Positions 7,054-42,551 of a stretch of DNA of 64,000 nt are shown piece by piece. The notes under the pieces were generated by a model. The model saw nothing but the letters and a program-made list of their open reading frames with translations. It ran no database searches and was not told the origin of the DNA. A program made the translations under genes and the position numbers. Position 1 is the stretch's first letter. Each line of letters starts with the position of its first letter. This DNA comes from an uncultured Planctomycetota bacterium (GTDB lineage Bacteria > Planctomycetota > PLA2 > JAEUHO01), in the NCBI GenBank assembly GCA_963752285.1, contig CAVVXN010000005.1, positions 1,184,001 to 1,248,000 on the forward strand, written 5' to 3'.

Positions 7054-7974
7054 TCAGCGCGGCTCCGCGAGCAAACGCCCCTCGGGGTCGAACACCCGGA
7101 CGGCGAAGTCGCGGCGCATGCGCTGGCGCCACCGCTCGAACTCCGGTCGCTCGAGCGGGTGCCGACGCAGGTCCTCCTCGAGGCGCGCGACGAGCTCGCC
7201 GCGGGTGCCGGTCCACGGCGCGGTCCGGCCGACGACCTCGTAGACGTGCCACGTCGTGCGGCCCTCTTCGTCCACCCGCAGCGGGCCCACGAGGTCTCCG
7301 TCCGCCGCGGCGAAGAGCCGAGCCTCGACGTCCGGCCACGCGAGATCCCCCCGCGCCACCGAAGGCAGGACGCCGCCGGACTTGCCGGTGGGGTCGATCG
7401 ACTCCTGGAGCGCGGTCAACGCGAAGTCGGCGCCCTGACGCAGCCGCGCGAGCACACGGTCCGCGCGGTCCCGGTCGCCGAGCACGATCACGCGGACGTC
7501 CAGGCGCGGCCGACGGCGCGTGTCGAGTCGGACGATCCGCATCAGGAGGAGCTGCCTGCGAAGTCGGGGCGCGAGGACGTCCCGTTTCCAGCCCTCCACC
7601 GTCGTCTCGTACGCGCGCCGGATCTCGGACGCGAGGTCCACGTCCTCGCCGAACGTCCGGTGGAGCTCGGCCTCGCGCGAAGCCGCCTCCTTCTCCACGG
7701 CTTCCCGCACCGCGTCTCCGGGGACCCGGATCCCCAGCCGATCGGCCTCGCGGACGACGATCGTCTCGTCCACCAGGTCGTCCACCGCGCGGAGCCAGCT
7801 CTCACGCTGGCGGCGGAAGAGGAACGCGGCCAGCTCCGCCGGGGTGACGGGCTGCCCCCCGACGACCGCGACCGCGGACGAGGGCCCCTCCCCCTTGGCC
7901 GCGCCCGGCGTGCCCGCGAGCCCCACGACGGCGACCAACACACCGGCCGCGCAGAGGGCGCGGGCGGCGTTCAC
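7054..7974 (-). CDS. Parvulin-type peptidyl-prolyl isomerase / SurA-PrsA-like exported protein
   Basis: GTG 7974 overlaps the upstream stop. Signal peptide, AVVGGQPVT..EL, GADFALTALQESID...SGGVL, LVGPL rotamase motifs. Confidence 0.82.
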   Translation of the reverse strand: MNAARALCAAGVLVAVVGLAGTPGAAKGEGPSSAVAVVGGQPVTPAELAAFLFRRQRESWLRAVDDLVDETIVVREADRLGIRVPGDAVREAVEKEAASREAELHRTFGEDVDLASEIRRAYETTVEGWKRDVLAPRLRRQLLLMRIVRLDTRRRPRLDVRVIVLGDRDRADRVLARLRQGADFALTALQESIDPTGKSGGVLPSVARGDLAWPDVEARLFAAADGDLVGPLRVDEEGRTTWHVYEVVGRTAPWTGTRGELVARLEEDLRRHPLERPEFERWRQRMRRDFAVRVFDPEGRLLAEPR

Positions 7975-8561
7975 CGGCTGACCGCCTTGTTCCAGGCGGC
8001 CTTCGCCTTCTGGACGTCGCGGCTCGTGCAGTGCTCCGGGTTGAACATCCCGATGTCCGGGTCGTGTTCCGCGCCGCGGTACCACGTGTTCAGGATCTGG
8101 CTCACGAGGACGCGCGTCGTGACGTCGTCGTCTCCCAGGAGCTTGATCAGCTTGGTCTTGGCGAAGTACGCCCGCGGTTTGCGCCCGTTCGGCGCCTTCT
8201 CGGCGAGGTCGGGATCGGTGTTCCTCGCCCGGGACTCCATCAGCGCCTGCGCCGCCTTCTCCCGCAGGTCCTTCGGAGCGGTCTTGTCGGACACCATCTT
8301 GACGAGGTCCTCCGCCGTCACGCTGCCGCGCGCCTTGAACTCCTTCTCGCTGTACGACTTGTAGAGCTCGATCTCCCGGTATCGCTCGTCGCGGCGCGCG
8401 AGCTCGGCGACCTGGCCCAGCCGGAGGGCCGCCTCGTCGAGCGCCCGGGAGAGCGCATCCACGTCGGTCGGCTCGTCCGACGCCGACGGCCCACCGACGG
8501 CGGTCGTCGCCCCCACGAGGAAGACCAGGGCCAGGGGTAGCAGGAGGAGGCGGCGGGACAT
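7971..8561 (-). CDS. Exported helical (HEAT-like) hypothetical protein
   Basis: Signal peptide MSRRLLLLPLALVFLVG, coding-like composition, LIKLLGDDDVTTRV HEAT-like motif, GGAGG upstream. Confidence 0.75.
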   Translation of the reverse strand: MSRRLLLLPLALVFLVGATTAVGGPSASDEPTDVDALSRALDEAALRLGQVAELARRDERYREIELYKSYSEKEFKARGSVTAEDLVKMVSDKTAPKDLREKAAQALMESRARNTDPDLAEKAPNGRKPRAYFAKTKLIKLLGDDDVTTRVLVSQILNTWYRGAEHDPDIGMFNPEHCTSRDVQKAKAAWNKAVSR

Positions 8562-8680
8562 GGGAGGGACCTCCAGAGGCGTCCCATCCTATCGGCTCGG
8601 TCGCGCCCCGACGAGGCTCGCTGCGGTCGCAGGGCCCGCGGGCGGCGTCGGCGGGCGCGGTCGGCGCGGGCTCCCTCTCC

Positions 8681-10180
8681 TCAGCGGTACTTGACGATGA
8701 CGTCCTGCTGCGCGCCCCCGCACCGGGTGCAGAGGTATTCGACGGTCTCGCCGGTCTGGAACGTCTTGCTGAGCAGGCCCTCGCCGTGGCAGGTCGAGCA
8801 GGGCCGGAACTCGCGCTCACCCAGCTCGAACAGGTCGGAGTGCTCGATGAAGTACGCGAGGACCCAGTTGGAGCGCTCGTTGGGCTTGCTGGCCGCCCAC
8901 CATCCGTCCCGGGTCGGCGGCTTGGGGATGTCGATCGCGGGCGCGGCGCCCCCGCTCTTGCTCGAGGACTTGTGCGTGCCCCCGCCCCGGTTGCCCTTGC
9001 GCTGCGGCGGCTTGATCTTGGGCGGGTTCACGATGAACGTGCCCGCCCCGTAGCTCACGCGCGACCACGGCGCCTTGAAGCGCCCCTGGCGGCGCCCCTG
9101 CCAGAAGGTCTGGGCCTCGGCGGGCGTCACGTCCTCGTCGTAGCGCTTCATCTCGCGCTCGGCGAGACGGGCGAACGCGGCCTCCGGCAGCTTCTGGCGG
9201 GTCCACGAGGTGATGTCGTTGATCTGGACGTCCTTCTCGCGGACCTTGTCGTCGATCAGGTCGCCGACGATCTTCACGAAACGGCGTCCGGCGACGGTCT
9301 CGAAGTAGCTCGTCCGCTCCTGCTGGAGGTCCTTCTTCAGGTCCTCGAGCTTCTCCTTCACGGCGTCGCTGGCATCGGGGTGCTTCTCGCCGAAGCCGTC
9401 GAGGATCTCCTTCACGCGCTTGAAGAAGTGCATCTGCAGCTTCATCCGCGCGTCCTTCAGCGTTTCCAGCGCGGCCTGGTCCTGGAGCAGGCTCTCGATG
9501 CGGGCCAGGCGGTCCTTCGCGATGTCCTTGTTCAGGTACTCGTCGTCGGCCGCGCACGCCGCGTAGCTGTCGCGGGCCTCCTCCAGCGCGCCGGCCCACT
9601 CGGCGTACTGGGCGATGCGCCAGTGCTCGCGCGAGGTGAGGGCGCCCGGGTCGAGCCCCTTCTGCTCCATCTCCGACTTGAGCTGCTCCTTCATTCGCGT
9701 CATCAGCTGGTCGGGGCTCCAGATCTGGCGCGCGTCGAGCGGCTCTTCCTCGATGGTGAGGACCTTCCCCCGGGGGATCTCGACGATGTCGCCCCCGCGG
9801 CGGAGCTTGACCACCCGGTCGTCGCTCGACTCCACGAGCCCGAGCACCTCGTCGGTGTCGCCGCCGTCGAGCTGGATCGTGACCCGGTTCCCCGTCACGG
9901 GGCCCTGGTCGACGCTCTTGATCCCGATCTCCTCCTCGATCTTGTCGCGGTCTTCCGGATCGAGCGCATCCCACGCGAACGAGCGGTACGCGCCCGACAC
10001 GTAGTCCTCCACCGTGACCTGCTTCTCGTCGGTCCGCTCCTGGATCACACGGCCCTTGATCGCCTCGCCGGTCCGCAGGCGGATGACGTCGGCGCGTGCG
10101 AGGAGGGTGAGCGGCGCGAGCAGGAGGAACGCGCCGAGGAGGGGCAGGAGTGCGCGGCGCCGGTTCGAGCTCGGAGTCAT
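8681..10180 (-). CDS. Exported protein with N-terminal beta-rich modules, helical core and C-terminal CxxC..CxxC zinc finger
   Basis: Signal peptide ending ARA-D. DVIRLRTGEAIKGRVI module. C-terminal CSTCHGEG...CTRCGG. Confidence 0.8.
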   Translation of the reverse strand: MTPSSNRRRALLPLLGAFLLLAPLTLLARADVIRLRTGEAIKGRVIQERTDEKQVTVEDYVSGAYRSFAWDALDPEDRDKIEEEIGIKSVDQGPVTGNRVTIQLDGGDTDEVLGLVESSDDRVVKLRRGGDIVEIPRGKVLTIEEEPLDARQIWSPDQLMTRMKEQLKSEMEQKGLDPGALTSREHWRIAQYAEWAGALEEARDSYAACAADDEYLNKDIAKDRLARIESLLQDQAALETLKDARMKLQMHFFKRVKEILDGFGEKHPDASDAVKEKLEDLKKDLQQERTSYFETVAGRRFVKIVGDLIDDKVREKDVQINDITSWTRQKLPEAAFARLAEREMKRYDEDVTPAEAQTFWQGRRQGRFKAPWSRVSYGAGTFIVNPPKIKPPQRKGNRGGGTHKSSSKSGGAAPAIDIPKPPTRDGWWAASKPNERSNWVLAYFIEHSDLFELGEREFRPCSTCHGEGLLSKTFQTGETVEYLCTRCGGAQQDVIVKYR

Positions 10181-10223
10181 CGGGTCTTCCTTCCGGAGCG
10201 GGACGGGACGGGACGGGGCGCCG

Positions 10224-10637
10224 TCACGGCGACCCGCCCGACTGGGGATCGAACGTGGACCGGGTCAGCGGCAGCGGGACGAGCGCGCGCACGGCGGTGC
10301 CCTGGTACTTGATCGTCGCGAGCGCCACGATGCGGTCGCCACCGAACGGGCTCGGTACGAAGTCCGCGTCGAGGGTGAAGTCGGGTTGCGACAGGGGGAG
10401 GTCGCGGATCTTCGGAGGGACGCCGCCGGGCTTCAGCGCGTCGAACGCGTCCTGCAGCCGGACGTACGCCTCGCGGCGGACCTGCTGGAGCCGCGCCTCG
10501 ACCTTGCGGTCCACGAGCTCCCGGGTCCCCATCGCGAAGAGCGACAGGATGGCGACCGCGCCCACGAGGAGCATGCCCAGCGCGAGCAGCACCTCGAGGA
10601 ACGTGAAACCGGCCGTGGTCCGTCGCGCGAAGGTCAT
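10224..10637 (-). CDS. Prepilin-type protein (small, GspI/PilV-like)
   Basis: MTFARRTTAG|FTFLEVLLALGMLLVG class III signal peptide. ATGA-coupled to the upstream gene. Confidence 0.88.
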   Translation of the reverse strand: MTFARRTTAGFTFLEVLLALGMLLVGAVAILSLFAMGTRELVDRKVEARLQQVRREAYVRLQDAFDALKPGGVPPKIRDLPLSQPDFTLDADFVPSPFGGDRIVALATIKYQGTAVRALVPLPLTRSTFDPQSGGSP

Positions 10638-11893
10638 CGGCTCGCTCCGCGCGCGAAGCGGTCGTGGAAGAGCAGCTTGACCGTCGCGCTCGTCGAGAGA
10701 CCCACGTACACCTGGCTCGCCGCGTCGTGGTCCATCGCGGGGGTGCCGCGCTGCCCGCGCTCCACCGGGATCTTCCCGAGCGCGAGGTCCACGCGAAGCG
10801 GCCGGTACCGCATCCACTCGCCGTCTACCTTCAGCCATCGCTCGTCCGGACCGGGCCCGACGAGCGGGAGGGCGTCCTCGACCGTGATCGCGGTCGCGTC
10901 GCGCGCGATGTCGTCCACCAGGGCCGTGTCGCCGCGTCCGAGGCCGAGCGCCGTGGGCGCCACGAGCGTCGTCTCGAGGCGCACCCAGGCGGGGAACACG
11001 TCGTCGCTCGGGTCGCCGAGGCTCTCGGGCCCCGCGAAGAGCGGGAACTGGCGGTCGAGTCCGCGCGTGCTGTCCCAGATCGGCCCGACGTACGCCTCGG
11101 TCTCGCGCACCGGCCCACTCGTCGGCTCCCAGCTCCGGGCGAACACCCGGCGCCACGTCGCGCCGAGGTAGAGGACGCCCGTCGCGACCGCCGAGCACCG
11201 CTCGTGGATCTGCTCGCGCGAGTCCAGGTTCTTCGGGTCGAGCAGCGACCTCGGCCCGCCTACCGGCGAGCGCCAGCCGCGGTACACCGTGAGGAGCCCG
11301 GGGAACCGCTCGTCCTCGGGGACGGCCACGTAGCAAATCTCGCGGAGCCCGCCGGTCGGCCGGAACGCGGTGTCGAGCGTCGCCTTGTCGAGCTCGGCCG
11401 GCTCCAGGTCCTTCAGGTCCGGCCCCGAACGCTCCCCCGCGCGGCGGATCCACGGGTCGCTGCGGTCCTCGCTGATGTCCGTGGTCCAGGCCATGTACCA
11501 GGCGGGAAGGCTCTTCAGCGGGCCCTCCGGGACGTCGCGGAGCGTGATCCAGCAAGCCCGAAGGCGGACGTCTTCGGGTGGGGGCGGCGGGCGGTCGTGC
11601 CCCTGGAGCTTCTCCTCCTCGGTCGGCGGCGGGGGCGGCGGGTCGAAGGACGCTGGGATCGCGAGCCCCTCGAAGTCGCGCACGATGCGCGGGAGCATCG
11701 TCTCGGTCCGGTCCTGCAGCGACGACTCCGTCGTGCCGGTCGCGAAGATGCCGAGCCCCTGCCGCATCATGTAGACGACGAACGTGCCGAGGATCGAGAA
11801 CACGCTGATCGCGAGCAAGAGCTCCACCATCGTGAAGCCGCGCCGGGACGCGGCGCCCCGGGCGCTGGCGACGCGCAGCACGGGCCCGGTCAC
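10634..11893 (-). CDS. Prepilin-type protein (GspJ/PilW-like, large)
   Basis: RRG|FTMVELLLAISVFSILG. GTG 11893 overlaps the upstream stop. Confidence 0.87.
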   Translation of the reverse strand: MTGPVLRVASARGAASRRGFTMVELLLAISVFSILGTFVVYMMRQGLGIFATGTTESSLQDRTETMLPRIVRDFEGLAIPASFDPPPPPPTEEEKLQGHDRPPPPPEDVRLRACWITLRDVPEGPLKSLPAWYMAWTTDISEDRSDPWIRRAGERSGPDLKDLEPAELDKATLDTAFRPTGGLREICYVAVPEDERFPGLLTVYRGWRSPVGGPRSLLDPKNLDSREQIHERCSAVATGVLYLGATWRRVFARSWEPTSGPVRETEAYVGPIWDSTRGLDRQFPLFAGPESLGDPSDDVFPAWVRLETTLVAPTALGLGRGDTALVDDIARDATAITVEDALPLVGPGPDERWLKVDGEWMRYRPLRVDLALGKIPVERGQRGTPAMDHDAASQVYVGLSTSATVKLLFHDRFARGASR

Positions 11894-13110
11894 GGCGCAC
11901 CTCCCGTCGGGGGTCCCTGGACCATGCGCTCCTCCACGGTCCCGTAGAGGCCGAGTCTCAGCTCGATCACCGACCCCTCCACCTTGCCGCCCATCTCCTG
12001 GAAGAGCAGCACGACGTCGCTCGCGTGCACGTCGGGGTCGAGCCGACCGTTCCGGTACGTGACGCGGACCGGCGCCTTCGGCCGGAGGAGCGCCACACCG
12101 TCCACGAGGCGCTCCATCTCGGCGGCACGGAACACGCCCGAGAGCACGAACTCGTCCATGCGTCCGTTGAAGGGCGTCGCTCCGTCCGAGATCGACAGCG
12201 GCGCGGCGCCCGACTCGGGGACCGTGATGCGCTTCACGGGCGCGCTGGCGAGCTCTTCGGTCCCCTGCGGCCGCTTCCGGGCCATCTGGTAGCGCTCGAG
12301 CCCGTCCACGCGCATCGACACCTCGCTGCCGTCGAAGGTGACCGCGAGGTGCGTCCACGTCGTCCCGTCCGCCCGGATCGGCGAGCCCTTCGTCGAGAAC
12401 TCCTCCAGCACGCCGGGCGAGGGCCGATCCGAGACCGGTTCGAGCTGCATCTTGAGACGCACGTCGTATGCGGCGTCGTTTCCGTTGCGCACGAGATCGA
12501 GCGCCCAGGCGCCCTCGGCCTTCGCGATCGTCATGACCGGACCGCCCGCGTCCACGGCCAGCCAGACGGAGAGGCCGAGCCCCTCCGTCATCGCGAAGCT
12601 CGACTGCGGCTCGAAGAGGATGCTCGCGTTCCTCGTGAACCGCGCCGCCTGTCCGGTGTAGCCGTCCGGCACGATCTCCACGCCGGTGCTCGACCGGACG
12701 GGGTAGTCGCCGCTCGCGCCGTCGAGGCGCTCGAAGTTGTCGGTGAGGACGGGCGCGTTGACGGCCGCGCCGATCACGAGGCTCCCGTCGCGCGACCGCG
12801 TCCGGAGGTTCCAGATCGCACGCACGCCGCCGTTGCTGCTCTGGATGCAGGCGTACGCCGTCTCGCGGAGGATCGCCAGGGACTGCGCCGCGCGCGAGGC
12901 GTGGCCGGTGTTGGTCAGGAAGCCGACCCCGATCCCCATGATCATGCCCATGATCGCCATCACGAGCATCACCTCGAGGAGGGTGAACCCACGCGGGCGA
13001 GGCGAGCCCGCCGCGCGCCGACGACGGCGGGCGGCGCCGGGACCGGGGCCCCGGCGTGCGCGGGTCCGCACGACCGACGACGGCTCGGGGGTCGGGCGGG
13101 CTAGTCCCAC
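11890..13110 (-). CDS. Prepilin-type protein (GspH/FimT-like) with LamG/concanavalin-like domain
   Basis: PRG|FTLLEVMLVMAIMG. LamG-like motifs LSVWL, WTHLAVTFDG...VDG, FNGRMDEF. Exact start uncertain. Confidence 0.85.
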   Translation of the reverse strand: MGLARPTPEPSSVVRTRARRGPGPGAARRRRRAAGSPRPRGFTLLEVMLVMAIMGMIMGIGVGFLTNTGHASRAAQSLAILRETAYACIQSSNGGVRAIWNLRTRSRDGSLVIGAAVNAPVLTDNFERLDGASGDYPVRSSTGVEIVPDGYTGQAARFTRNASILFEPQSSFAMTEGLGLSVWLAVDAGGPVMTIAKAEGAWALDLVRNGNDAAYDVRLKMQLEPVSDRPSPGVLEEFSTKGSPIRADGTTWTHLAVTFDGSEVSMRVDGLERYQMARKRPQGTEELASAPVKRITVPESGAAPLSISDGATPFNGRMDEFVLSGVFRAAEMERLVDGVALLRPKAPVRVTYRNGRLDPDVHASDVVLLFQEMGGKVEGSVIELRLGLYGTVEERMVQGPPTGGAP

Positions 13111-13760
13111 GACTTGACGTCGTCCTGCGTGTTCGGGATGCCGTCCGGGCCCGCGCTGAAGATCTGGAAGCTATCGGGCTGCGCGAAGCCGGTCCGACCC
13201 TCCGCCTCGTACTTCCAGGGCTTCGGGGTCATCTCCTCGCCGCTCGCGGTCGTGTACGAGGGCGGGCTCTCGGTGGCGCGGGCGTACTCGGTGTGGGGGA
13301 AGTAGAAGAGCGGGTTGCCCCAGCCGTCCACGATCTCCCAGAGCTTCTTCCCCTGGCTCGTCACGGCCTCGGAGAGCTCGTCGTCGTCGGTGTTCACGAG
13401 GTCCTTGTCGCCCAGGTCCACCTTCACGCCCGCCGTCTCCCAGTAGAGCGCCTGGAAGAGGGACTCGATCCCCTCGTTGCTCGAGTTGGGGAGCGCCTTG
13501 ATCGACTTCGTGCCCCCGGCGCCGCTCTGGATGCGTCGGGCGTCGATCGGCGGGTAGCGCCCGAACCGCTGGTAGTACGCGTTCGTGGCGACGGAGAGCT
13601 TCCGGATGCGCGTCTCCGTCTCGAGCTGGGGCCGCTTCCTCGACCAGAGGGAGAGACCGACGAACGCGAGCCCCGCGAGCACGGAGAGGATGCCCATCAC
13701 CACGAGCACCTCGATGAACGTGAAGCCCCGCTCTCCTCGAGCCGGTCTCGTCGCTCGCAT
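13101..13760 (-). CDS. Prepilin-type protein (GspG-like pseudopilin)
   Basis: ERG|FTFIEVLVVMGIL, YYQRFGRYPP, DGWGNPLFY, FQIFSAGPDGIPNTQDDV (T2SSG-type C-terminus). GGAG upstream of ATG 13760. Confidence 0.88.
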   Translation of the reverse strand: MRATRPARGERGFTFIEVLVVMGILSVLAGLAFVGLSLWSRKRPQLETETRIRKLSVATNAYYQRFGRYPPIDARRIQSGAGGTKSIKALPNSSNEGIESLFQALYWETAGVKVDLGDKDLVNTDDDELSEAVTSQGKKLWEIVDGWGNPLFYFPHTEYARATESPPSYTTASGEEMTPKPWKYEAEGRTGFAQPDSFQIFSAGPDGIPNTQDDVKSWD

Positions 13761-13789
13761 GTCGGACCTCCCGACTCCCGGGCGGGGAG

Positions 13790-16786
13790 TCACTTTCGTC
13801 TCACGATGCGGATCTCGCCCACCTCGATCTTGAACGCCTGGGCCTGCGTGGACCAGCCGAGGATCGCGAGGCGCGCCTTGCCACGACCGCGGCCCTTGAA
13901 CACGCCGATGGTGTCCTCGGCGATCTTCATCCCCTCGAGCCCGTCGTCGAGGTTCGTGTCGAGGTACACGGCCAGCTTGCCGGCGTCCGCGTCCTCCCGG
14001 GTGATCCGGATCTCGACCCAGCCGTCGCTCGGCCACGCCGTCTCGGGCGAGACCCTGAGCATCTCGCCGCTCTTGTACGTGTCGTCGCGACCGCCCGCGA
14101 TGCGCACGGCGAGCTTGCCCCGGTCGTAGAAGATCCCGATCCCGGGGGGGAGCCCGCCGGTGCGCGCGCCGCCGCCGCCGGCCCGGTCGATCTCCACGCC
14201 GAACGTCACCAGGTTCATGCTCGCGCCGCGATCGTCGCGGAGCGGGATCCGCACGCGGACCCGGACGTCCTCCATGGTGCCGACCGTCATCAGGTCGTCG
14301 GCGCCGAACACGGCGACCGTGGGGTCGTCGTAGGTCCCGTCGTCCTTGGCGACGCCCTCGATCTCGACCTTCTCGTCCTCGACCCGCGCCCTGACGCCAT
14401 GGGACTCGGCCTGCTCCCACCCCGCGGGGAGGCTCGTTCCGTCGAACGTGACGACCTTCTCCTCGAGGCTCCGCCAGTGCTTGACGGCCTCCAGCGTGTC
14501 GGACGCGTAGTCCCGCCAGGGGCGCCACTCGCCCTCGTCGCCCTCGGGCACCTTGTCCTTCACGAGCTGGAAGTGCCGGATGCAGTCGTCGTACTCGCCG
14601 ATCTGATAGTCGCAGTACGCCCGGAGGGCGAGGGCGCCCGGCTGCTCGGCGTCGATCTTCTGGAGGACGTGGTCCGCCACCGCGCCCGCGGCGGTGAACC
14701 GGTGGCGCGCCGGCTGCCGCGCGTCGTGGAGCTTGATCCAGCACTCGCGCAGCTCCGAGCGGAAGGCCTTCGGGTCGCGCTTCGCCTCGGTGCTCGAGGC
14801 GCGCTCCGCGAACGCCACGGCCGCGTCGAAGTCCTTCGAGGTCTCCTCGAGGGGGGTCCCGGCCGCGAGGGCCTGGATCGCCACGTCGAGCCGGCTGCGC
14901 GCGAGCCACCCGTCGAGCTCGGGATAGACCTGCGCCTCCCCCAGCGCCCGACCGAACGAACGCACCGCGACGGCGGTGTTGCCGTCGCGCTGGGCCACCC
15001 AGCCCGCCAGGTAGTCGTGGTACGCGACACCGGGGGCCTCCTCCTTCGCGCGCTGCAGAGAGGCCAGCAGCTCCCCCGCGTTGCCGGTGGCCAGCGCGAT
15101 CAGCGCGAAGCCGAACGCCGGAGACACGCTCTCGTCGGCGAAGCGCCGCGGCGCCGCGCCGAAGCTCAGCGCGCGCTCCGCCGCCGTGAACGCGGCCCGC
15201 GCCGCGCCGCCCTGCCCCATCCGCCAACAGGCGAGGCCGAGGTCGTAGAGCGCCTGGGCGCGGTAGGTGAGCGCCTCCTCTCCGGTCGAAGTGGCGGCCC
15301 CGAGGAACGCGTCGCGGGCGGCCTGGAGGTCGCCCTTCGCGTACGAGATCGCGCCCTTCACGAGGAGTGCACGCGGCGAGGTCCCCGCGGAGGCCGCACC
15401 TTCGAACGCGGAGCCCGCGCCGGCCAGGTCGCCCAGCCGCAGCAGGGCCTCGGCGGTACGCACCTGGGCCCGCGGGTCGGGCGCGGCCTGCCGGTAGGCG
15501 GCGACCGCCTCGTCGTGCCGCCCGAGCGCCGCGAGCGCGTCCCCGAGCCCGATGCTCGCGTCCGCGTTCCGTCCGCGGTCGAGCGCCGCGCGGAAGTAGG
15601 GCACGGCCTCGGCGGGCAGCGACAGGCGATCGAGGTAGAGCTGCCCGAGCCAGAGCCACGGCTCGGGCCGGGTGGGAGACACCCGCGCGTACTCGGAGAG
15701 GGTGTGGAGCACCGCCTCCTCGTCCTGGAGCGCCGAGTACGCGTGCACGAGCTCCAGCAGGATGTCGGCGCGAAGCGCCGGGACGCCGCGCTCGCGGGCC
15801 ACCGTGAGCGCGCGTTCGAGGAGGTCCACGGCCCGCCGCCAGCCGGCGCGGTCTTCCTTGCCCGTCTTCCCGGTCGCCGCCATCTCCTCGGCGGCCTGCC
15901 GGAGCGCGGAGATATCGGTGGACTGCGAGAGGTCGGCCGAGAGGCCGTGTCGCCTGAGGGCTTCGGCGTACAGGTTGTCCACCGTGGAGCGGAGCACCCA
16001 CTCGTCGAAGCGCTTCGCCGACGACGTGGACACGTTCTCGCGGCGCTTCTTGATCACGTCGGTCGGAGTCAGCGCCTTCGACGCCGTCTCCTCGCCGCCG
16101 ACGAGCGCCCACTCCACCTCGAGGTCCTCCCACCCGGGCGCGTGCCGCGCCAGCTCCCACTTGAGCGGCTGGAAGTGCGCGTCGTCCTCGCGATAGAGCG
16201 TGCCGCCGTCCTTGATGCCCTTGATGTAGACGTAGACCTTGCGCCCGCTGCTGTCGACGGCGATGTCGTACACGTCCGCGGCCACGGGCTGGTAGTCCTG
16301 GAAGTGCGGGTCCTGGATCTCGGGGATCGACGATCCGTCGTCCACCTTGAGCTCGGGGAGCGGACCGCGGAGCAGGTACCGCGCGCCGGGCGCCGGACCC
16401 GGGATCGTGGGTGGCAGCGAGAAGGAGAGCGGCAGCCACGGCGGGTCGTCCAGCGTCACCGGCGGCAGGCCGTGCGTGTCGGAGTGCTTCTGGAAGGGGT
16501 TCCGCGCGTCCGGCCCGAGCCCGAGCGACGGACGCGCCAGCGGGTCACCCGACGGGTCGAGGATCTGCGACGCGACGACGCGGTCGGTCGAGGCGGAAGC
16601 GTGTCCGCTCCCCACCTTCTCGGGCGTGCACTGCCAGAGCGTGAAGAGGAAGAGGACGCCCGAGAAGAGGAGGAGCGCCTTCTCCTTCCCGAGGCTCTTG
16701 TCGAGGACGACGGTCGCCGCGATCGCGAGGAGCCCCGCGAAGAGGAAGCCGACGAACGTCAGGAACGCACCGGCGAGCACGATCAT
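13790..16786 (-). CDS. Membrane-anchored 998-aa TPR protein with C-terminal beta-rich domain (in the pilP position)
   Basis: ATG 16786 coupled to the pilO-like stop. Two N-terminal TMs, Pro-rich segment with RNPF, many TPRs (EPWLWLGQLY, ASIGLGDAL...EAVAAYRQA, ALYDLGL), beta-rich tail. Confidence 0.82.
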   Translation of the reverse strand: MIVLAGAFLTFVGFLFAGLLAIAATVVLDKSLGKEKALLLFSGVLFLFTLWQCTPEKVGSGHASASTDRVVASQILDPSGDPLARPSLGLGPDARNPFQKHSDTHGLPPVTLDDPPWLPLSFSLPPTIPGPAPGARYLLRGPLPELKVDDGSSIPEIQDPHFQDYQPVAADVYDIAVDSSGRKVYVYIKGIKDGGTLYREDDAHFQPLKWELARHAPGWEDLEVEWALVGGEETASKALTPTDVIKKRRENVSTSSAKRFDEWVLRSTVDNLYAEALRRHGLSADLSQSTDISALRQAAEEMAATGKTGKEDRAGWRRAVDLLERALTVARERGVPALRADILLELVHAYSALQDEEAVLHTLSEYARVSPTRPEPWLWLGQLYLDRLSLPAEAVPYFRAALDRGRNADASIGLGDALAALGRHDEAVAAYRQAAPDPRAQVRTAEALLRLGDLAGAGSAFEGAASAGTSPRALLVKGAISYAKGDLQAARDAFLGAATSTGEEALTYRAQALYDLGLACWRMGQGGAARAAFTAAERALSFGAAPRRFADESVSPAFGFALIALATGNAGELLASLQRAKEEAPGVAYHDYLAGWVAQRDGNTAVAVRSFGRALGEAQVYPELDGWLARSRLDVAIQALAAGTPLEETSKDFDAAVAFAERASSTEAKRDPKAFRSELRECWIKLHDARQPARHRFTAAGAVADHVLQKIDAEQPGALALRAYCDYQIGEYDDCIRHFQLVKDKVPEGDEGEWRPWRDYASDTLEAVKHWRSLEEKVVTFDGTSLPAGWEQAESHGVRARVEDEKVEIEGVAKDDGTYDDPTVAVFGADDLMTVGTMEDVRVRVRIPLRDDRGASMNLVTFGVEIDRAGGGGARTGGLPPGIGIFYDRGKLAVRIAGGRDDTYKSGEMLRVSPETAWPSDGWVEIRITREDADAGKLAVYLDTNLDDGLEGMKIAEDTIGVFKGRGRGKARLAILGWSTQAQAFKIEVGEIRIVRRK

Positions 16787-17760
16787 GGATGGGATTCCTC
16801 CGCCGCCTGGAGGCCGAGGGAGACCTCGGGCCGGACGAGGGTCGAGGCGGCGGTCACGCTGAGCTGTACGACACCGTCGAGCGGCGAGCCTTTCGGAGGC
16901 TGCTTGATGTCCACGGCGCTGAGCGGGACCGGTCGCGTGGGGTCGGTGAGTCGCGCGAGGATCGGCGCGACGGAGGCCGCGTCGCCCTTGATCGACATCG
17001 TGAAGGGCCACGTCCGGAGGAACGTGTCGGTGGACTCGACGGCCGGACGCGGGTCGATGCGCACCTCCTCGATGGAGCGCGCGCCGGACCGGATCGCGAG
17101 GTCCGCGAGCTCGGAGACGAGCGCCAGGTTGAGGAGCCGCTGCGGGAGATTCGGCCGGGTCACCGAGCTCACGCTGGAGAAGCCGAGGTAGTCGGGCTTG
17201 ATCTCCACGTCCGCGCGGTTCGCGCGGACCTTCATCTCCGACCACACGGCGCCGAGCAGCAGGGTGAACCCCACGTTCGGGTCGCCGGTGCGGAGCGAGG
17301 TGAGGAGATCGGCGCGCGCCTGCTCGTACCGGTGGACCGCCTGCGCGGCCGCCACGGCGTCGCCCTCGAACGCGGCCAGCACGGCCGGCGCACCCTCCCC
17401 GTCGGGCTTCGCGACCGCCTGGCGGATGGCGTCCGGAGACTGGCCCCTCAGGATCGCCGCGGTGAGGCAGGTCGTCACGGCCGAATCGAGCTCGTCCTGG
17501 CCGCCCGCCTGGTCGAGACGGCTCGCCCAGTCCGTCACGCGCTTGCGGAGGTCCTCCACGTTCTGCGGGACGTTGCGCTCTTCGTCGCGCGACGGCTCCA
17601 CGAGGTCCTCCACGATCCGCTTGTTGCCGACGACGGCCTTCGCGAGCACGTCGGGGTCCTCCGTCATCACGTGGACCACGATCAGCCCGACCAGGAAGGC
17701 CCCGAGGCCCACCAGGATGGGGATCCAGAACGACCGATATCTCTGCCAGAGCTCGTCCAC
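16783..17760 (-). CDS. PilO/GspM-like inner-membrane assembly protein
   Basis: Single N-terminal TM, coiled coil, ferredoxin-like C-terminus (WPFTMSIKGD..SV..IL). Follows pilM. Confidence 0.62.
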   Translation of the reverse strand: MDELWQRYRSFWIPILVGLGAFLVGLIVVHVMTEDPDVLAKAVVGNKRIVEDLVEPSRDEERNVPQNVEDLRKRVTDWASRLDQAGGQDELDSAVTTCLTAAILRGQSPDAIRQAVAKPDGEGAPAVLAAFEGDAVAAAQAVHRYEQARADLLTSLRTGDPNVGFTLLLGAVWSEMKVRANRADVEIKPDYLGFSSVSSVTRPNLPQRLLNLALVSELADLAIRSGARSIEEVRIDPRPAVESTDTFLRTWPFTMSIKGDAASVAPILARLTDPTRPVPLSAVDIKQPPKGSPLDGVVQLSVTAASTLVRPEVSLGLQAAEESHP

Positions 17761-17861
17761 GGCTCAGCTCCCGAGGTCGAGAGGCCCCGCCGTCGGCCCG
17801 GAGCCGGCGGGGGTCCTCGGACCGCCCGAGGGGTTCACGGAACGTGCGCGCGAGGCGGGGG

Positions 17862-19829
17862 TCACCGGGAGCCTCCCGCGGCGTTCCCGGACGTTCCACC
17901 GGTCGCGCCGCCCGCGGGGTTCGCGCCCGCCGCACGCTCCTTCAGCTGCTTCTCGAGGTCCCGCCGCTGCCGGCGCTCGATCCTGTCGAGGAGGATCTTC
18001 GTGCGGACGCCGTCCGACCGCCGGCCGAAGACGGCCGTCGGCGACTCCGCGTCGTCCAGGGCGAGGTCCGCGAGCACGATCGAGCCCGCGTCGCCTCCGC
18101 GGGGGTCGGCGGACACGAGGTGGATCTCGACCCCGGGCCGGAACAGGAGCTCGAACGAGCCGTCCTGGTCGCGGCCTCCCTTGCGGAAGATCTTCTCGGT
18201 CTCGACCAGGAGCCCCTGCCCGTTCGACTGGCAACGCTGCACGAAGTCCTGGAACACCGCCTCCGCGCGCTGGCTCGCGGCGACACGGCCGGTGACGAGG
18301 ATGCTCGGCTCGAGGGCGGGGTACTTCGTCTTCCGGCCCACGCTCTGGTACCCCGAACCGTTCTGGCTCCCCTTGGGCCGGTAGTACGTGATGTCCTGGG
18401 AGCTCTCCCCCACCTTGAGCTGGACCTCCTGCAGGTACACGTCCTTCGTGGACTCGAGGTTCTTCTGGAGCACCGCCAGCGTCTTCCCGAGGAGGGCGCC
18501 CGGCGCGGCGAGGTCGGCCAGCGCGGCGTGCTTGACCTCGAGGTCCTGCATGGTCTCGAGCGCGTGGCGGAAGCGTCCGTCCTTGTCCTTGGCCTCGTTC
18601 TTCGCCCGCTCCAGGTGGGTCAGCGTGGCGTGCGCGGTCTCCGCCGCGGAGGAGCGACCCACGTAGAGGACGCCGAGGATGCCGGCGGCCACCACGGCCG
18701 CGCCCGCGGCCCAGATGCCCTTCTCGACGAAGTCCCGACGAGTGCGGAGCGACTTCGGGAGCACGGCGATCGGGAACGCCTCGTCGGCCATGTACGCCTG
18801 CGCGAGGCCCACCGGGACCGCGAACTCGTGCGGCGCCCGCTCGAGCATCGTGCGTTCCTCGTCGGACAGCCCCGACAGGTCGCTGATCGCGAACGGGTTC
18901 ATGCGCTCCACGGGCACGCCCATCGCCTGCTTCAGGTAGAGGTCCAGCCCCTTCAGCGACGCGCCGCCGCCGGCGAGGAGCACCCGGTCCACGCGCAGGT
19001 CGGGGAGCTTCGTCTGCGCCCGCGCGATCATCAGCGTGGACTGGATCAGCGAGGCGAGCTGCCCCGCCACCCCGAGGATCGCGTTCGCGACCTTCTCGGC
19101 GGTGGCGTCGGGGTACCGCGCCTGGCCGCGCGGCGTCACGTCGGCCTTCGCGATCTTCATCTGCTCGGCCTTCCCGAAGGAAGTCGCGAACGCCTGCTGG
19201 ATGGCCTCCGTGAACACCTTCCCGCCGGGCGTCGCGTTCCGGGCGAACAGGAGCTGGCCGCCGCGCTGCAGCGCGAGGTCCAGGTCCTCCGCGCCCACGT
19301 TGACGAGGAGGGTCGTCTCGTCCTCGCGGTAGGTGGCGTTCACCGCGAACGCGTTGAAGAGCGCGATGCTGTTCGGGCACGCGCCGGCGGTGGGGACGCC
19401 GCCCGCCTGGAGCGCCTGGATCTGGCGGTCGAGGTACGTGTTCCGCGCGAGGGCGACCAGGATCGTCTCCTCGCCGCGCGTCCCCTCGGGGTCCGGGAGG
19501 TCGAGCTTGCGGTAGTCGGCGGAGACGTGTCCGCCCGACTGGCTCCCGACCTCGTCCACCTCGTACTTCATCAGGGTGCGCAGGCGCCACTCGGGGACCG
19601 GCGGTACCTGGCTGTACCGGATGATCACGTCGCGGCCCGTGAGGCCGACCGACGCGCCGGCGCCCTTGAAGCCGCGGGCGGCGAGCGCACGGCCCGCGAC
19701 GGGACGCGTCTCGTCGTTCAGGCGGTCCACGAAGGCGCGCTGGACGACGTAGCCCTGGCCCTTCGCGCGCATCTTCACCGCGCGGAGCGAATGGCTGCCG
19801 ATCGTGACGCCGAGGCCGACTCTCGCCAT
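17862..19829 (-). CDS. pilM: Type IV pilus assembly PilM-like protein fused to a PilN-like TM/periplasmic part
   Basis: VGLGVTIGSHSLRAV, LLVNVGAE..DL, GGKVFTEAI, VLLAGGGASLKGL..YL...G.PVE..NPF, FAVPVGLA. Then a TM (GIWAAGAAVVAAGILGVLYV) and a coiled coil. Confidence 0.87.
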   Translation of the reverse strand: MARVGLGVTIGSHSLRAVKMRAKGQGYVVQRAFVDRLNDETRPVAGRALAARGFKGAGASVGLTGRDVIIRYSQVPPVPEWRLRTLMKYEVDEVGSQSGGHVSADYRKLDLPDPEGTRGEETILVALARNTYLDRQIQALQAGGVPTAGACPNSIALFNAFAVNATYREDETTLLVNVGAEDLDLALQRGGQLLFARNATPGGKVFTEAIQQAFATSFGKAEQMKIAKADVTPRGQARYPDATAEKVANAILGVAGQLASLIQSTLMIARAQTKLPDLRVDRVLLAGGGASLKGLDLYLKQAMGVPVERMNPFAISDLSGLSDEERTMLERAPHEFAVPVGLAQAYMADEAFPIAVLPKSLRTRRDFVEKGIWAAGAAVVAAGILGVLYVGRSSAAETAHATLTHLERAKNEAKDKDGRFRHALETMQDLEVKHAALADLAAPGALLGKTLAVLQKNLESTKDVYLQEVQLKVGESSQDITYYRPKGSQNGSGYQSVGRKTKYPALEPSILVTGRVAASQRAEAVFQDFVQRCQSNGQGLLVETEKIFRKGGRDQDGSFELLFRPGVEIHLVSADPRGGDAGSIVLADLALDDAESPTAVFGRRSDGVRTKILLDRIERRQRRDLEKQLKERAAGANPAGGATGGTSGNAAGGSR

Positions 19830-19915
19830 GGGCGCTCTCTCTCATCTCGGGGCGCCGCGGCTCGGAGCCGGGCGCCGGGTGGGTAGGGGGTTCGTTTCCT
19901 GGCTCGGGCGGACGT

Positions 19916-22426
19916 TCACGGTTTGGGGGGAAGCGCGGCCTGGACCTCGGGCGTCGCCTCGAGCTTGTCCAGCTTCTGCTTCACGTCGGCCAGGCGCTTC
20001 GCGAGGTCCGGCGAGGACGCCGCGAGGTCCTGGTACCGCGCGAGGAGGGCCCGCGCGTAGACCGCCGCGACGGGACGGTACGCCACCTCCTCGCCGAGCA
20101 GGTCCACGAGGCGCTCGAGCCGGTCGAGCACGGGCGTCGCCCGGTCGAGCTCCCACGCGGTCTCCGCCTGCCCGACCTGGTCGGTGAACTCCTGGACGCG
20201 CTTGACGAGCGGCCGGTCGGCGGGGTCCGGTCCCCCGAGGAAGCGCTCGGTGAAGCGCTTCGCGCGCGCCTTCACGTCGGCCAGGGAGTCGGCGGAGCCG
20301 TACACGCGGAACCGCGCGAGGGAGGCCTCGCCCTCGGTCAGCTCGTCGCGCACCTTGCCCTCGAGCTCGCCCGCGATCTGGATGGCCTGGTCGCGGACCT
20401 CGGGGTTGAACGGGTTGGCCTGGGCGATCCGGCGGAGCTGGTCGAGGGCCTCGGCCGGGCGCCGGTCCCGCAGGAGCTTCGCCGCCTCGAGCTCCTTCCT
20501 CGCGACGTCGCGCTGCGAGGAGAAGTCGGTGGTGAGCGACAGGTCGCCGGAGGCGCCCGGGAGCCACGTGCGGACGACGAGGAGGGCGTCTTGGCCGTCC
20601 GGCGCGAGGAGCTCGAGCGTGGCCGACGACTGGTCGTCGGTCGTGGCGATCTGGACCAGGGTCGAGGGCTTCCCCGGGCCCTCGTCCGCCTCCCCGATCA
20701 GCGACCGCTGCACCTTTTCGAGGTGCTGGCCGGCCTCCGCCGGGAAGCGCTGGGGGACGAAGTCGCCGAGCGCGCTCACCGCGCCGCCCGTGTACGCCTC
20801 GGGCATCATCGCGTCGAGCCCGACGGCCGAGGCGCCCTCCACCTCGACGTGGGCGACCAGGCCCTCCTTCGCACGCGTCCAGGTGAGCTTCGCCGGCGCG
20901 CCGTCCTTCTCGCTGGCGGTTCCGAGCGTGCCCTCGACGCGGATGGTGCCGCCGTCCAACGCCACCGCGCCGCTCGGGACGAAGCGGTCGAGGATCGTGC
21001 CGTCGGCGGTCTTCGCGATCGGCGCCACGCCGGTCAGGAGGACCCGGCGGCCGGCCTGCAGGTCCATCCGGCCGGCCGTGTCCACGAACGCCTTCTTGAA
21101 CACCGGGACGTCCAGCGCGACCGCCTCGTGGCCCGCGGCGCGCTCGACGCGGACGTCGTCCACGCTGATGCGGGCGCCGGGCGCGAGGAGCACGCCGATC
21201 CGCGCGATCCGCGCCCACGCGGGCGGCGCGAGCGTCGCGTGGACGGGCGTCCAGGAGGTGCCCGGGGCGAGGATCGTGTCGGTCCGCGTGAGGGGGGTCA
21301 CGAGGCCGGTCCGCTCGTCGGACGACGGGTTCGAGTCCCAGACCACGACCAGGCGCGCGTCGGCGTCGCCGCTCTTCCGGGCCTTCGCCTCGATCGAGAG
21401 GGGGAGCTCCGGCGTCGCGTCGATCGGGGTGTCGTACGCGACGAGCGACGGCCCCTGGACCTGGTCGCTCACGGAGACGACGAGCCCCGTGCTCTTGTGG
21501 TCGCCCGCGCCCGCGCGGGCCGCGACGTCCACGCGCTCGGGGTCGTCGGTGGACCACGCGAGACCGCCGCCCTCGAAGTCGCCGTTGTCGAGGAGGCCGC
21601 CCGCCCCCGCGACCTGCTCGGAGGTGCCGCCGCCCTCGCGCTGGCTCAGGAGATAGCCCCCGGCCCCGGCGGCGAGGAACAGGACCAGGACGAGCAGGGG
21701 TCCCGCGCGGGAGCCCGGGGCGCGGGCGAGGTCGATCTCGCCCATCATCCCCCACCCCTCGTCCTCCTCGAACTGCGCCAGCTCCACCTCGACGTCCTTC
21801 ATCGAGGGGTCCTTGAACACGAACCGGCTGTTGCCCACCCGGAGACGGGTGCCGTGGGTCAGGAGGGCCTCGCTCACGAGCTCGCCGTTCACCAGCGTCC
21901 CGTTCGTCGAGCCGAGGTCCTTGACCGTGTAGCCGTTCATGTCCCGGTCGATCTCGCAGTGGTGGCCGGAGGCCATCCGGTCGTCGATCACCAGCACGTT
22001 GGTCTCGCGGCGGCCGATCGTGACGCGCCGCTCGGAGAGCATGACCTTCTCGCCGCGCCGGTCCTTGTTGGCCCACTCGAGGTAGCAGACCCCCTCCTTC
22101 TCCGCCTGGGCCGCGCGCCCGGCCTCGTCGGGGTCCTCGAACTTGAGGCGGGCGTGGCCGACCTCGACCACGTCGCCGTCCCCGAGCGCCCGGCGCGTGA
22201 TCGGGGCGCCGGCGACCCGGGTCTTGTTCGTGGAGCCGAGGTCCACGACCTCCCAGCCCCCGCCCCCGCTGTCGCGAGGTCCGATGCGGCAGTGCCGCCG
22301 CGACGCCTGGTTGTCGTCCGGCAGGGGGACGCGGTTCGTCGGATCCCGCCCGACCGTTACGACCTGGCCGGGTTCGAGCTCCACGACCTCCTCGCCGTGC
22401 GGGGTGGTGACCACGAGTCGTGCCAT
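19916..22426 (-). CDS. Bitopic membrane protein: two cytoplasmic FHA domains, TM, carbohydrate-binding-like domain, helical C-terminus
   Basis: FHA1 VGRD..ASRRHC..DLGSTN and FHA2 IGRR..ASGHHC..DLGSTNGT. TM LLVLVLFLAAGAGGYLL. LLDNGDFE (CBM-like start). Confidence 0.88.
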   Translation of the reverse strand: MARLVVTTPHGEEVVELEPGQVVTVGRDPTNRVPLPDDNQASRRHCRIGPRDSGGGGWEVVDLGSTNKTRVAGAPITRRALGDGDVVEVGHARLKFEDPDEAGRAAQAEKEGVCYLEWANKDRRGEKVMLSERRVTIGRRETNVLVIDDRMASGHHCEIDRDMNGYTVKDLGSTNGTLVNGELVSEALLTHGTRLRVGNSRFVFKDPSMKDVEVELAQFEEDEGWGMMGEIDLARAPGSRAGPLLVLVLFLAAGAGGYLLSQREGGGTSEQVAGAGGLLDNGDFEGGGLAWSTDDPERVDVAARAGAGDHKSTGLVVSVSDQVQGPSLVAYDTPIDATPELPLSIEAKARKSGDADARLVVVWDSNPSSDERTGLVTPLTRTDTILAPGTSWTPVHATLAPPAWARIARIGVLLAPGARISVDDVRVERAAGHEAVALDVPVFKKAFVDTAGRMDLQAGRRVLLTGVAPIAKTADGTILDRFVPSGAVALDGGTIRVEGTLGTASEKDGAPAKLTWTRAKEGLVAHVEVEGASAVGLDAMMPEAYTGGAVSALGDFVPQRFPAEAGQHLEKVQRSLIGEADEGPGKPSTLVQIATTDDQSSATLELLAPDGQDALLVVRTWLPGASGDLSLTTDFSSQRDVARKELEAAKLLRDRRPAEALDQLRRIAQANPFNPEVRDQAIQIAGELEGKVRDELTEGEASLARFRVYGSADSLADVKARAKRFTERFLGGPDPADRPLVKRVQEFTDQVGQAETAWELDRATPVLDRLERLVDLLGEEVAYRPVAAVYARALLARYQDLAASSPDLAKRLADVKQKLDKLEATPEVQAALPPKP

Positions 22427-22514: not shown

Positions 22515-22530
22515 TGCAACGCGTATTCCA
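22515..22530 (-). promoter_or_regulatory. Sigma54 (-24/-12) promoter for the FHA-pilMN-pilin operon
   Basis: Minus strand TGGAAT-ACGCG-TTGCA has exact GG-N10-GC spacing. It lies about 90 bp upstream of ATG 22426 and just downstream of a sigma54 activator gene. Confidence 0.7.
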
Positions 22531-24703: not shown

Positions 24704-24788
24704 GGCCTCTCGCATGCAAACCGCGCTCCGAGGCGGAGCGTGCTCCGGCGGGCACGAAACGGGCCTCGCCGTCACCGGATCGTCATGC

Positions 24789-42529: not shown

Positions 42530-42551
42530 CGGACCCTTGGAGCAGCCTCAA

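Follow-up and report, generated by a model that had tools for sequence, protein, structure and literature searches.

Introduction

Planctomycetes bring whole polysaccharides into an enlarged periplasm, and Verrucomicrobia are capable of something comparable. In Akkermansia muciniphila, the accumulation of glycans in the periplasm is reported to depend on the mul genes, of which MUL2 corresponds to amuc_1099-1102 (PMC13174399), and Amuc_1098 is described as a secretin of 907 amino acid residues (aa) with tetratricopeptide repeats (TPRs) and as the most abundant outer-membrane protein of this bacterium (PMC4960237). In the planctomycetes Planctopirus limnophila and Gemmata obscuriglobus, large crateriform structures are described together with 12-nm fibres that bind gold-dextran and with periplasmic uptake sensitive to carbonyl cyanide m-chlorophenylhydrazone (Boedeker et al. 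2017, PMC5394234), and the same description calls the uptake apparatus for polysaccharides 'still to be characterized'. Among the papers searched, we found none tying planctomycete genes to crateriform structures, and the main text of a 2019 survey of the type IV filament superfamily contains no word beginning with 'Planctomycet' or 'Verrucomicrob'. We here describe an operon of eleven genes, termed A to K, which encodes parts of a type IV filament machine in an uncultured Planctomycetota bacterium (GenBank assembly GCA_963752285.1). The operon resides in a stretch of 64,000 nucleotides of contig CAVVXN010000005.1 (positions 1,184,001 to 1,248,000 of the forward strand), which was analyzed as a whole and is hereafter called the window.

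It is well supported that the operon is the core of a type IV filament machine of the Planctomycetes-Verrucomicrobia-Chlamydiae (PVC) type, the genes of which are split over at least three loci. As a whole, we regard it as probable that the operon encodes the regulated core of this machine, that the motor and the pores are encoded elsewhere, and that the machine captures and imports glycans. The genome comprises 4.64 Mb in five contigs (C1 to C5), and the G+C content of the window is ~73%. Genes were called by combining frame plots of the third-position G+C content, open reading frames and a codon model trained on this genome, and 41 proteins of the window were scanned for domains.

An operon conserved across Planctomycetota

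The genes A to K are all on the minus strand between positions 7054 and 22426 of the window (Table 1), and these ends agree with those in a first-pass annotation of the window. The gene order described there, namely a protein with two FHA domains and a transmembrane (TM) segment, a PilM fusion, a PilO-like protein, a TPR protein, four prepilins, a zinc-finger protein and a peptidyl-prolyl isomerase (PPIase), was recovered in our analysis, except that J, labelled 'HEAT-like', matched no family. The four prepilins (E to H) were correctly said to share a G/F-x-x-x-E motif and to be translationally coupled in part; stop and start codons overlap by 4-10 bases at the five junctions C/D, E/F, F/G, G/H and J/K, which fits coupling. 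Neither T2SSE, T2SSF, A24 peptidase nor T2SSK domain was detected among the 41 scanned proteins, and no operon protein matched PilQ in Pfam or NCBIfam, as had been noted. On the other hand, the statement that the system lacks an ATPase, a platform protein and a peptidase does not hold as written, as all of them are encoded elsewhere in the genome; the closest T2SSE genes precede the window by ~55 kb and follow it by ~48 kb. Three features had been overlooked, namely a sigma-54 activator gene, a sigma-54 promoter and the gene of a 996-aa protein with a GspG-type domain (Table 1).

The relatives of B were found in metagenome-assembled genomes (MAGs) of Planctomycetota. We fetched 57 related loci, and the order activator-A-B-C-D-E-F-G-H-I-J was kept in them, so the arrangement is far beyond chance. 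When each gene was searched for by tblastn, with only the loci retaining enough flanking sequence as the denominator, A was detected in 50/50 loci, the activator in 42/43, E (downstream of B) in 44/44, F in 29/39, G in 25/38, H in 21/37 and I in 19/32. C and D were recognisable by sequence in 32/53 and 22/44 loci, respectively, and the place of each is held by a gene of similar size in 49 and 39 loci, respectively. The most distant loci (L062-L071, L075 and L078-L080) have, after F, a protein of at least 1200 aa instead of G, H and I. One contig of Bacteroidales (L035), in which 27 residues matched B with an E-value of 4e-4, was excluded from every count. Of 301 sampled genomes of Planctomycetota, 231 contained a match to a profile of B at E<=1e-10, and so did 141 of the 191 high-quality ones; the scores grade from 1130 to ~170 bits, and the weakest matches may be plain PilM. 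The comparisons of sequence and synteny indicate that the operon is a conserved lineage across the phylum, not a local, one-off hybrid.

B and C resemble Amuc_1101 and Amuc_1100

B is a protein of 655 aa, in which PilM_2 (PF11104) was found at aa 7-343 with 70.9 bits (cut-off 27), followed by a TM segment at aa 372-390 and a periplasmic part of ~260 aa; this domain order is GspL-like. B scored 112 bits against TIGR01175, being under the cut-off of 133. Its best match in NCBIfam was Amuc_1101_fam (7.5e-39, 134 bits, aa 48-478; cut-off 650), suggesting that B is a distant relative of Amuc_1101. C matched no family by sequence in Pfam or NCBIfam. When the AlphaFold2 (AF2) model of C was searched against PDB with Foldseek, the top 10 hits were all Amuc_1100, followed by PilO (E-value of 1.5e-3). 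The match to Amuc_1100 (6kny_A) had an E-value of 9e-7, a TM-score of 0.72 and a root mean square deviation (rmsd) of 2.8 over 154 residues, and hhalign aligned C with an Amuc_1100-family protein of Akkermansia with an E-value of 2.5e-5 and a probability of 75%. Judged from the model, C is a structural homologue of Amuc_1100.

The complex of B (aa 355-655) and C was predicted with an ipSAE of 0.83 in three runs, while the best of three controls scored 0.00. Among solved complexes, 116 of 157 attained this value, as did 2 of 215 mismatched pairs, a benchmark that is only approximate as our own alignments were used. The contacts agreed by at least 91% among the runs with a partner pLDDT of at least 83, and lie on the membrane helices, on the coiled coil and in one strand pairing. 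B and C are thus predicted to form a PilN/PilO-like heterodimer. Nevertheless, similar PilN/PilO-type complexes have already been solved, and the score is therefore to be read as likeness and not as a proof of binding.

The pair brings the operon close in kind to the pilus-like Amuc_1098-1102 locus, which is linked to the use of mucin, and three traits are shared: a long PilM-like fusion followed by a bitopic PilO-fold protein (B/Amuc_1101 and C/Amuc_1100), secretins with N-terminal TPRs (Sec1 and Sec2/Amuc_1098; see below), and a tandem pair of full-length ATPases encoded elsewhere with a platform protein. In contrast to the Akkermansia locus, that of planctomycetes further includes A with its FHA and CBM parts, D with its TPRs, pseudopilins of GspG and GspJ types, a LamG pilin, I-J-K and a sigma-54 activator, and its secretins are duplicated and placed at a distance, in a unit with ExbB/ExbD and a sulfatase. 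D and E were tried as the counterparts of Amuc_1099 and Amuc_1102, respectively, and both were rejected (probabilities of 0.2% and 0.7% in profile comparisons).

A second long PilM-like protein (591 aa; Amuc_1101_fam, 3.5e-27) is encoded at C1:243966-246373 (L021:7966-10373) with an ECF sigma factor alongside, and its gene is followed by one for a protein of 210 aa. The two could be the L/M-like pair of a gspD-E-F-G-H cluster described below.

Prepilins resembling those of type II secretion

The profile of the E family matched GspG in PDB (5wda, 1.1e-13) over the N-terminal helix and a C-terminal GPDG..DD motif; E scored 32.9 bits against the GspG model TIGR01710 (cut-off 88.85). The model of G (pLDDT 86.8) was linked by Foldseek to XcpW (9a1f_S, 5.7e-4), and VIA-align superposed it on 5vtm_W with a Z of 11.9 and an rmsd of 3.2 over 153 of 161 residues, with GspJ/EpsJ entries in the top ranks. 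PDB searches by the sequences of G and H recognised the prepilin helix only. The LamG part of F matched neurexin LNS and other LamG domains. N_methyl/TIGR02532 was found in E, F and G; the matches of H were all weak, namely N-terminal ones to ComGE, GspJ and GspI. The proposal that an alignment protein of the type IV pilus is combined here with pseudopilins of type II secretion systems (T2SS) therefore stands, as B is of PilM type, E resembles GspG by sequence, and G resembles GspJ/XcpW by fold. As for the proposed order G-H-J-I, the assignments of G (E) and J (G) are retained, whereas F and H may be H-like and I-like, respectively, only as far as position and weak N-terminal matches suggest.

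The resemblance to canonical T2SS (Gsp/Xcp/Eps) thus comprises the GspG-like E with its GPDG..DD motif, the GspJ-like G, the GspL-like order of B and the GspM/PilO-like fold of C. However, the operon has no GspK, GspC or GspD-type N0-N3 secretin, the operon proteins yielded no match to GspC, GspL or GspM in Pfam or NCBIfam, and the cytoplasmic domain of B scores as PilM. Furthermore, the candidate ATPases (see below) are outside the GspE clade, the candidate motor locus contains a PilT-type ATPase, and the FHA, CBM, LamG, TPR and ExbB/ExbD parts have no counterpart in T2SS. With the type IVa pilus machine, the system shares a PilM domain over the Pfam cut-off, the PilO fold, a secretin, PilB- and PilT-like ATPases and a prepilin peptidase. 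Here, in contrast, PilM is fused to a TM segment and a periplasmic (PilN-like) part, no PilP was found among the operon proteins in Pfam or NCBIfam, the subunits are pseudopilin-like, and the canonical pilM...pilQ and pilT-pilB-pilC-pilin sets are encoded separately in this genome.

Other prepilin-type genes were found elsewhere in the genome. C2:340690-345832 encodes a protein of 1376 aa with a prepilin-type N-terminus and then a prepilin of 341 aa, and two GspG-like genes lie outside the known clusters (C5:1052341-1052691 and C5:1320574-1321269). The product of the latter (231 aa) is 36% identical to E over its N-terminal 75 residues.

Twin secretins as the candidate pores

Sec1 and Sec2 are TPR-secretins of ~1000 aa encoded on the opposite strand, 15 and 29 kb from the operon. 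Amuc_1098_fam was the best NCBIfam match of Sec1 (8.2e-32, 110 bits) and the second best of Sec2 (70.7 bits), the cut-off being 750; both possess TPRs but matched neither Secretin_N nor N0. They belong to a unit, UDG-Sec1-TPR-(449 aa)-ExbB-ExbD(x2-4)-sulfatase-Sec2-HAD, which is conserved in distant planctomycetes and appears in the same order in L104-L106. As in the window, the distance between the unit and the operon is 5-25 kb in four (G301, G302, G303 and G305) of the five whole genomes examined, and amounts to 592 kb in G304; the unit is directly upstream of the operon in the same orientation in L073, L075, L076 and L105. The linkage persists through several rearrangements, in lineages of which B proteins are only 33-46% identical. 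The genes of Amuc_1102-1101-1100-1099-1098 are contiguous, as a single block, in Luteolibacter and in an Akkermansia sp. MAG. ExbB/ExbD were not seen among nine proteins scanned around a second Amuc_1098-family secretin of the Akkermansia sp. MAG.

The first-pass annotation had suggested a split system with the two secretins as its pore. The idea gains support from the Amuc_1098-family matches and from the conservation of the unit, which neighbours the operon in several rearranged versions. We consider the twin TPR-secretins, from these sequence data, as the best and fairly well supported candidates for the pore of the operon.

A tandem-ATPase locus as the candidate motor

Outside the window, the genome holds a gspD-E-F-G-H cluster with two further prepilins, a Tad-like locus, a canonical pilM-(253 aa)-(506 aa)-pilQ set and a pilT-pilB-pilC-pilin set with PilD, as well as a locus encoding two ATPases (E561 and E575), a PilT-like protein between them and a platform protein (the E-T-E-F locus; Table 1). 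Among the four full-length ATPases, the one with gspD-F-G-H is above the GspE cut-off and the one with pilT-pilC-pilin is above the PilB cut-off. The other two exceeded neither, the pair scoring 598 and 563 bits against GspE (cut-off 630.25), and E561 and E575 scoring 585 and 633 bits, respectively, against PilB (cut-off 675.65, passed by the ATPase of L019 with 679.9); they were placed outside the GspE clade in the tree. The E-T-E arrangement is kept in five relatives, never near the operon.

The members of Verrucomicrobiota gave the clue to the motor. In each of the two MAGs searched, from Akkermansia sp. (G306) and a member of Akkermansiaceae (G308), the full-length ATPases found comprise just one tandem pair, with a platform gene after it. 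These ATPases paired one-to-one with E561 and E575 with tree supports of 83/83 and 82/91, outside the GspE+PilB clade. The ATPase locus of Luteolibacter is followed by a GspG-like gene, the best match of which in this genome is E (58.9 versus 48.9 and 45.4 bits). Altogether, the E-T-E-F locus is moderately supported, by sequence comparison, as the motor of the operon's system.

Paralogous tandem ATPases of the extension type are conserved from Planctomycetota to Verrucomicrobiota (L107 and L108), with a PilT-like gene between them in planctomycetes, and all of them have an N-terminal motif of the MshEN type for binding c-di-GMP.

Protein A and predicted control by sigma-54

A is a protein of 836 aa with FHA domains (Pfam, 2.6e-34), a single TM segment at aa 242-260 and a periplasmic part of ~575 aa. 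The profile of the A family matched the carbohydrate-binding module (CBM) CBM22 of xylanase Y (2w5f, E-value of 4e-7), and CBM_4_9 of Pfam was found in 9 of 44 A orthologues.

The gene of an FHA-GAF-sigma54 protein, probably the activator of the operon, directly precedes A on its upstream side; this holds for 42 of the 43 related loci that extend far enough. A GG-N10-GC promoter, the adjacent enhancer-binding protein and rpoN are all present in this genome. The promoter upstream of A is a GGAAT-N5..TTGC element, and among the 50 orthologous loci scored, 30 reached at least 18.5, the maximum being 20.5; a search of the window for TGGCAC-N5-TTGC with one mismatch allowed returned no match, the actual element being of the GGAAT type. 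We regard the operon as real and conserved, and as probably controlled by sigma-54.

The pattern GG[ACT]A[TC]-N5-TTGC[ATG] occurs at 32 sites genome-wide, and 20 of them, which are intergenic with a same-strand gene starting no more than 400 nt downstream, provide a first list of candidate sigma-54 promoters in this genome. Two further FHA-GAF-sigma54 activators are encoded at C2:436328-438394 and C2:236830-238767, being 40% and 52% identical to the operon activator, respectively.

Table 1. Features of the operon, the twin-secretin unit and the distant loci. Positions are those of the window unless a contig is given; a slash in a motif follows the glycine of the prepilin-type signal.
Feature	Position	Strand	Description	Basis or remark
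A	19916..22426	-	Two FHA, TM, periplasmic CBM-like domain, beta-rich region, C-terminal helical region	Pfam, TM, profile
B	17862..19829	-	PilM-like ATPase-fold domain, TM, coiled coil, periplasmic domain	PilM_2; Amuc_1101_fam
C	16783..17760	-	Bitopic PilO-fold protein, 325 aa, N-terminal TM	AF2 pLDDT 94.8
D	13790..16786	-	Membrane-anchored 998-aa TPR protein, C-terminal beta-rich domain	TPR families, N-terminal TM
E	13101..13760	-	GspG-like major pseudopilin with insertions	G/FTFIE; profile versus PDB
F	11890..13110	-	Prepilin with LamG/ConA-like lectin domain	G/FTLLE; N_methyl, Laminin_G_3
G	10634..11893	-	GspJ-like minor pseudopilin, inserted beta domain at aa ~311-401	G/FTMVE; AF2 fold
H	10224..10637	-	Small prepilin-type protein, GspI-sized	G/FTFLE
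I	8681..10180	-	Secreted 499-aa protein, C-terminal 2xCxxC zinc ribbon	Signal peptide, motif
J	7971..8561	-	Secreted 196-aa protein	No Pfam/NCBIfam family; orthologues in closer loci
K	7054..7974	-	SurA-like PPIase/chaperone	Rotamase 5.9e-6, SurA_N_3 2e-5
Promoter	22515..22529	-	Sigma-54 type -24/-12 promoter GGAATACGCGTTGCA	89 nt upstream of A start codon
Activator	22730..24715	-	FHA-GAF-sigma54 AAA-HTH enhancer-binding protein	Sigma54_activat 1.8e-66, FHA, GAF_2, HTH_8
996-aa protein	2804..5794	-	Possible accessory; membrane protein, internal GspG-type domain at aa 321-400, N-terminal TM helix	T2SSG 1.1e-13
Sec1	35024..38098	+	TPR-secretin	Secretin 3.6e-26 and TPR
TPR and 449-aa proteins	38723..43901	+	1268-aa TPR protein and 449-aa protein of no family	Inside secretin unit
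ExbB/ExbD	44060..46729	+	ExbB/TolQ-like and three ExbD/TolR-like proteins	MotA_ExbB 4.9e-28; ExbD 1.2e-14, 6.8e-11, 1.4e-7
Sulfatase	46777..48627	+	Sulfatase between ExbD genes and Sec2	Sulfatase 3.3e-29; same place in L104, L105, L106
Sec2	48774..51776	+	TPR-secretin, 32-33% identical to Sec1	Domain scan, NCBIfam
E-T-E-F locus	C5:1484231-1490062		ATPase E561, PilT-like (359 aa), ATPase E575, platform F390	~278 kb away
PilD	C5:2117432-2118559		PilD

Proposed function and alternatives

The capture of polysaccharides and their uptake into the periplasm would be the most likely role of the system, in parallel to the fibre-bearing crateriform structures of planctomycetes and to the uptake of mucin by Akkermansia that depends on mul genes. 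We infer this role because A bears a CBM-like domain, F is a LamG pilin, the sulfatase is conserved, and ExbB/ExbD are encoded beside the secretins. In the proposed mechanism, PilD would process E to H, and the products of the E-T-E-F locus would polymerise E upon a tip consisting of F, G and H, and might also retract the fibre. The fibre would pass through the twin TPR-secretins of the neighbouring unit, with ExbB/ExbD feeding the proton-motive force to the outer-membrane side. Through A, the machine would be linked with signalling by Ser/Thr phosphorylation as well as with glycan in the periplasm. The proteins I, J and K reside in the periplasm, K as a SurA-like chaperone.

The same parts might instead run outward, as a T2SS-like machine with no uptake fibre, in which a short pseudopilus pushes folded glycan-degrading enzymes (e.g., sulfatases) through the TPR-secretins. 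This is an unlikely explanation in our opinion, albeit the T2SS-type subunits E (GspG-like) and G (GspJ-like), the GspL domain order of B and the sulfatase gene inside the secretin unit agree with it, and the mucin growth defect of Akkermansia mul mutants, as reported, could equally stem from failed enzyme export (PMC13174399, PMC12570417). A gspD-E-F-G-H cluster, including an ATPase above the GspE cut-off, is present in the genome already, the candidate motor locus includes a retraction ATPase of the PilT type, and lectin-like domains are present on both F and A, all of which speak against the export of enzymes. So does the presence of ExbB/ExbD, as these motors are known to energise import or outer-membrane processes and not T2SS export. 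That the operon completes the T2SS cluster 70 kb upstream (gspD-E-F-G-H and two prepilins), with B and C as the L and M of an ordinary split T2SS, appears very improbable. The cluster indeed comes without L/M-like genes, and the architecture of B and the fold of C would suit these roles. Nevertheless, the cluster brings G, H and two further prepilins of its own, and could be served by the second long PilM-like gene and the 210-aa gene after it, and the relatives of B and C are Amuc_1101 and Amuc_1100. In addition, the MAGs of Akkermansia sp. and Akkermansiaceae hold only the tandem ATPases that group with E561/E575 outside the GspE+PilB clade, and the operon never adjoins gspD, gspE or gspF in the 57 loci.

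The twin-secretin/ExbBD/sulfatase unit could also be a separate system (e.g., for TonB-like uptake or surface assembly) that neighbours the operon by inherited synteny, the operon using another secretin. The unit is inverted relative to the operon in the window and remote from it in G304, no shared sigma-54 promoter was found, and at least six other secretin-domain genes are present in the genome. We hold this explanation to be quite improbable, as Sec1 and Sec2 match the Amuc_1098 family, members of which are contiguous with the homologues of B and C in Verrucomicrobiota, and the linkage survives rearrangements across lineages with greatly diverged B. Moreover, the other secretins adjoin gspE/F, pilMNO or Tad-type genes, or are short.

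Several observations weigh against the filament machine for glycan import as we propose it. The matches to the Amuc families are far under the NCBIfam cut-offs (134 versus 650 bits and 110 versus 750 bits), and no counterpart of Amuc_1099 or Amuc_1102 was found, either by NCBIfam matches among the operon proteins or by pairwise comparisons, for which only D and E were used. Besides B and the twin secretins, the genome holds the second long PilM-like protein and several other secretin-domain genes. Regarding transcription, among the 20 intergenic strict sites, only the one before A falls in the operon, secretin or ATPase loci, and the relaxed score was 17 or lower before Sec1, the 1268-aa TPR gene, ExbB, Sec2 and the ATPase locus, compared with 20.5 before A. 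As for the motor, the support for the ATPase clades is moderate and the margin of the best match among the pseudopilins is small. No ATPase, platform or peptidase gene was found within 10 kb of B in the 57 loci, and the motor was thus chosen by orthology and elimination. Of 27 genomes in which B is absent or weak, most carry the E-T-E signature as well (these 'negative' genomes may hold B homologues too divergent for E<=1e-10), so that phylogenetic profiling does not tie the motor and the operon together. Profiling was dropped as a link to the motor, since the signature does not discriminate.

The import of glycans by the proposed filament machine invites a comparison with the crateriform structures, which are known only by morphology. 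The properties of these structures, namely a complex that spans the envelope and connects the outer membrane with the cytoplasmic one, a polysaccharide-binding fibre and energy-dependent periplasmic uptake, are those expected of a secretin, ExbB/ExbD and a filament machine with lectin-like parts. We thus regard the operon as a candidate for encoding the uncharacterised polysaccharide-capturing fibres of planctomycetes. A much wider proposal, to which we give doubtful standing, is that the three loci are the genetic basis of the large crateriform structures and the 12-nm fibres and represent a distinct PVC-wide class of type IV filaments running inward. In this class, a retractile, lectin-tipped GspG-like fibre would reel polysaccharide through giant secretins gated by the proton-motive force into an enlarged periplasm, being switched on by phospho-threonine signalling and sigma-54, and the MUL2 pili of Akkermansia would be a reduced verrucomicrobial form.

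The operon defines a type IV filament lineage that is unmentioned for these phyla in the main text of the 2019 survey. The unusual parts of the lineage are the combination of FHA and CBM, a pilin bearing LamG, TPR-secretins that are duplicated and accompanied by an ExbB/ExbD motor, and a pair of extension ATPases that are paralogues. For polysaccharide uptake, the three loci offer a concrete candidate set of ~25 genes, conserved across the phylum and homologous to the Akkermansia locus. As Planctopirus limnophila is genetically tractable, the set is open to knockout in this species, provided that the orthologous operon is confirmed there.

Accessory and neighbouring genes

K consists of a SurA-like N-terminal domain and a rotamase domain. 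The 2xCxxC zinc ribbon of I is present in 21 of 24 orthologues, the other three being cut by locus ends. At C5:2149922-2150650, this genome encodes a protein of 242 aa that is paralogous to the C-terminal half of I (34% identity) and shares its zinc ribbon.

The 996-aa protein with a GspG-type domain is a possible accessory of the system. Its gene is separated from the operon in the window by scpB on the opposite strand, and a homologue is directly downstream of the operon in G301, G302 and G303; with the window protein as the query, no homologue was found in G304 or G305. At the left edge of the window (1-1394), a sigma-54 activator and a PAS histidine kinase are encoded.

A protein of 1400 aa with ~7 membrane helices and many TPRs is encoded at 25535-29737 on the minus strand of the window, followed by an RsmE-type methyltransferase gene. 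In 25 of the 32 loci that extend far enough, tblastn placed it upstream of the activator. It may be a part of the system or of envelope glycosylation; AsnB, GT2 and methyltransferase genes adjoin it.

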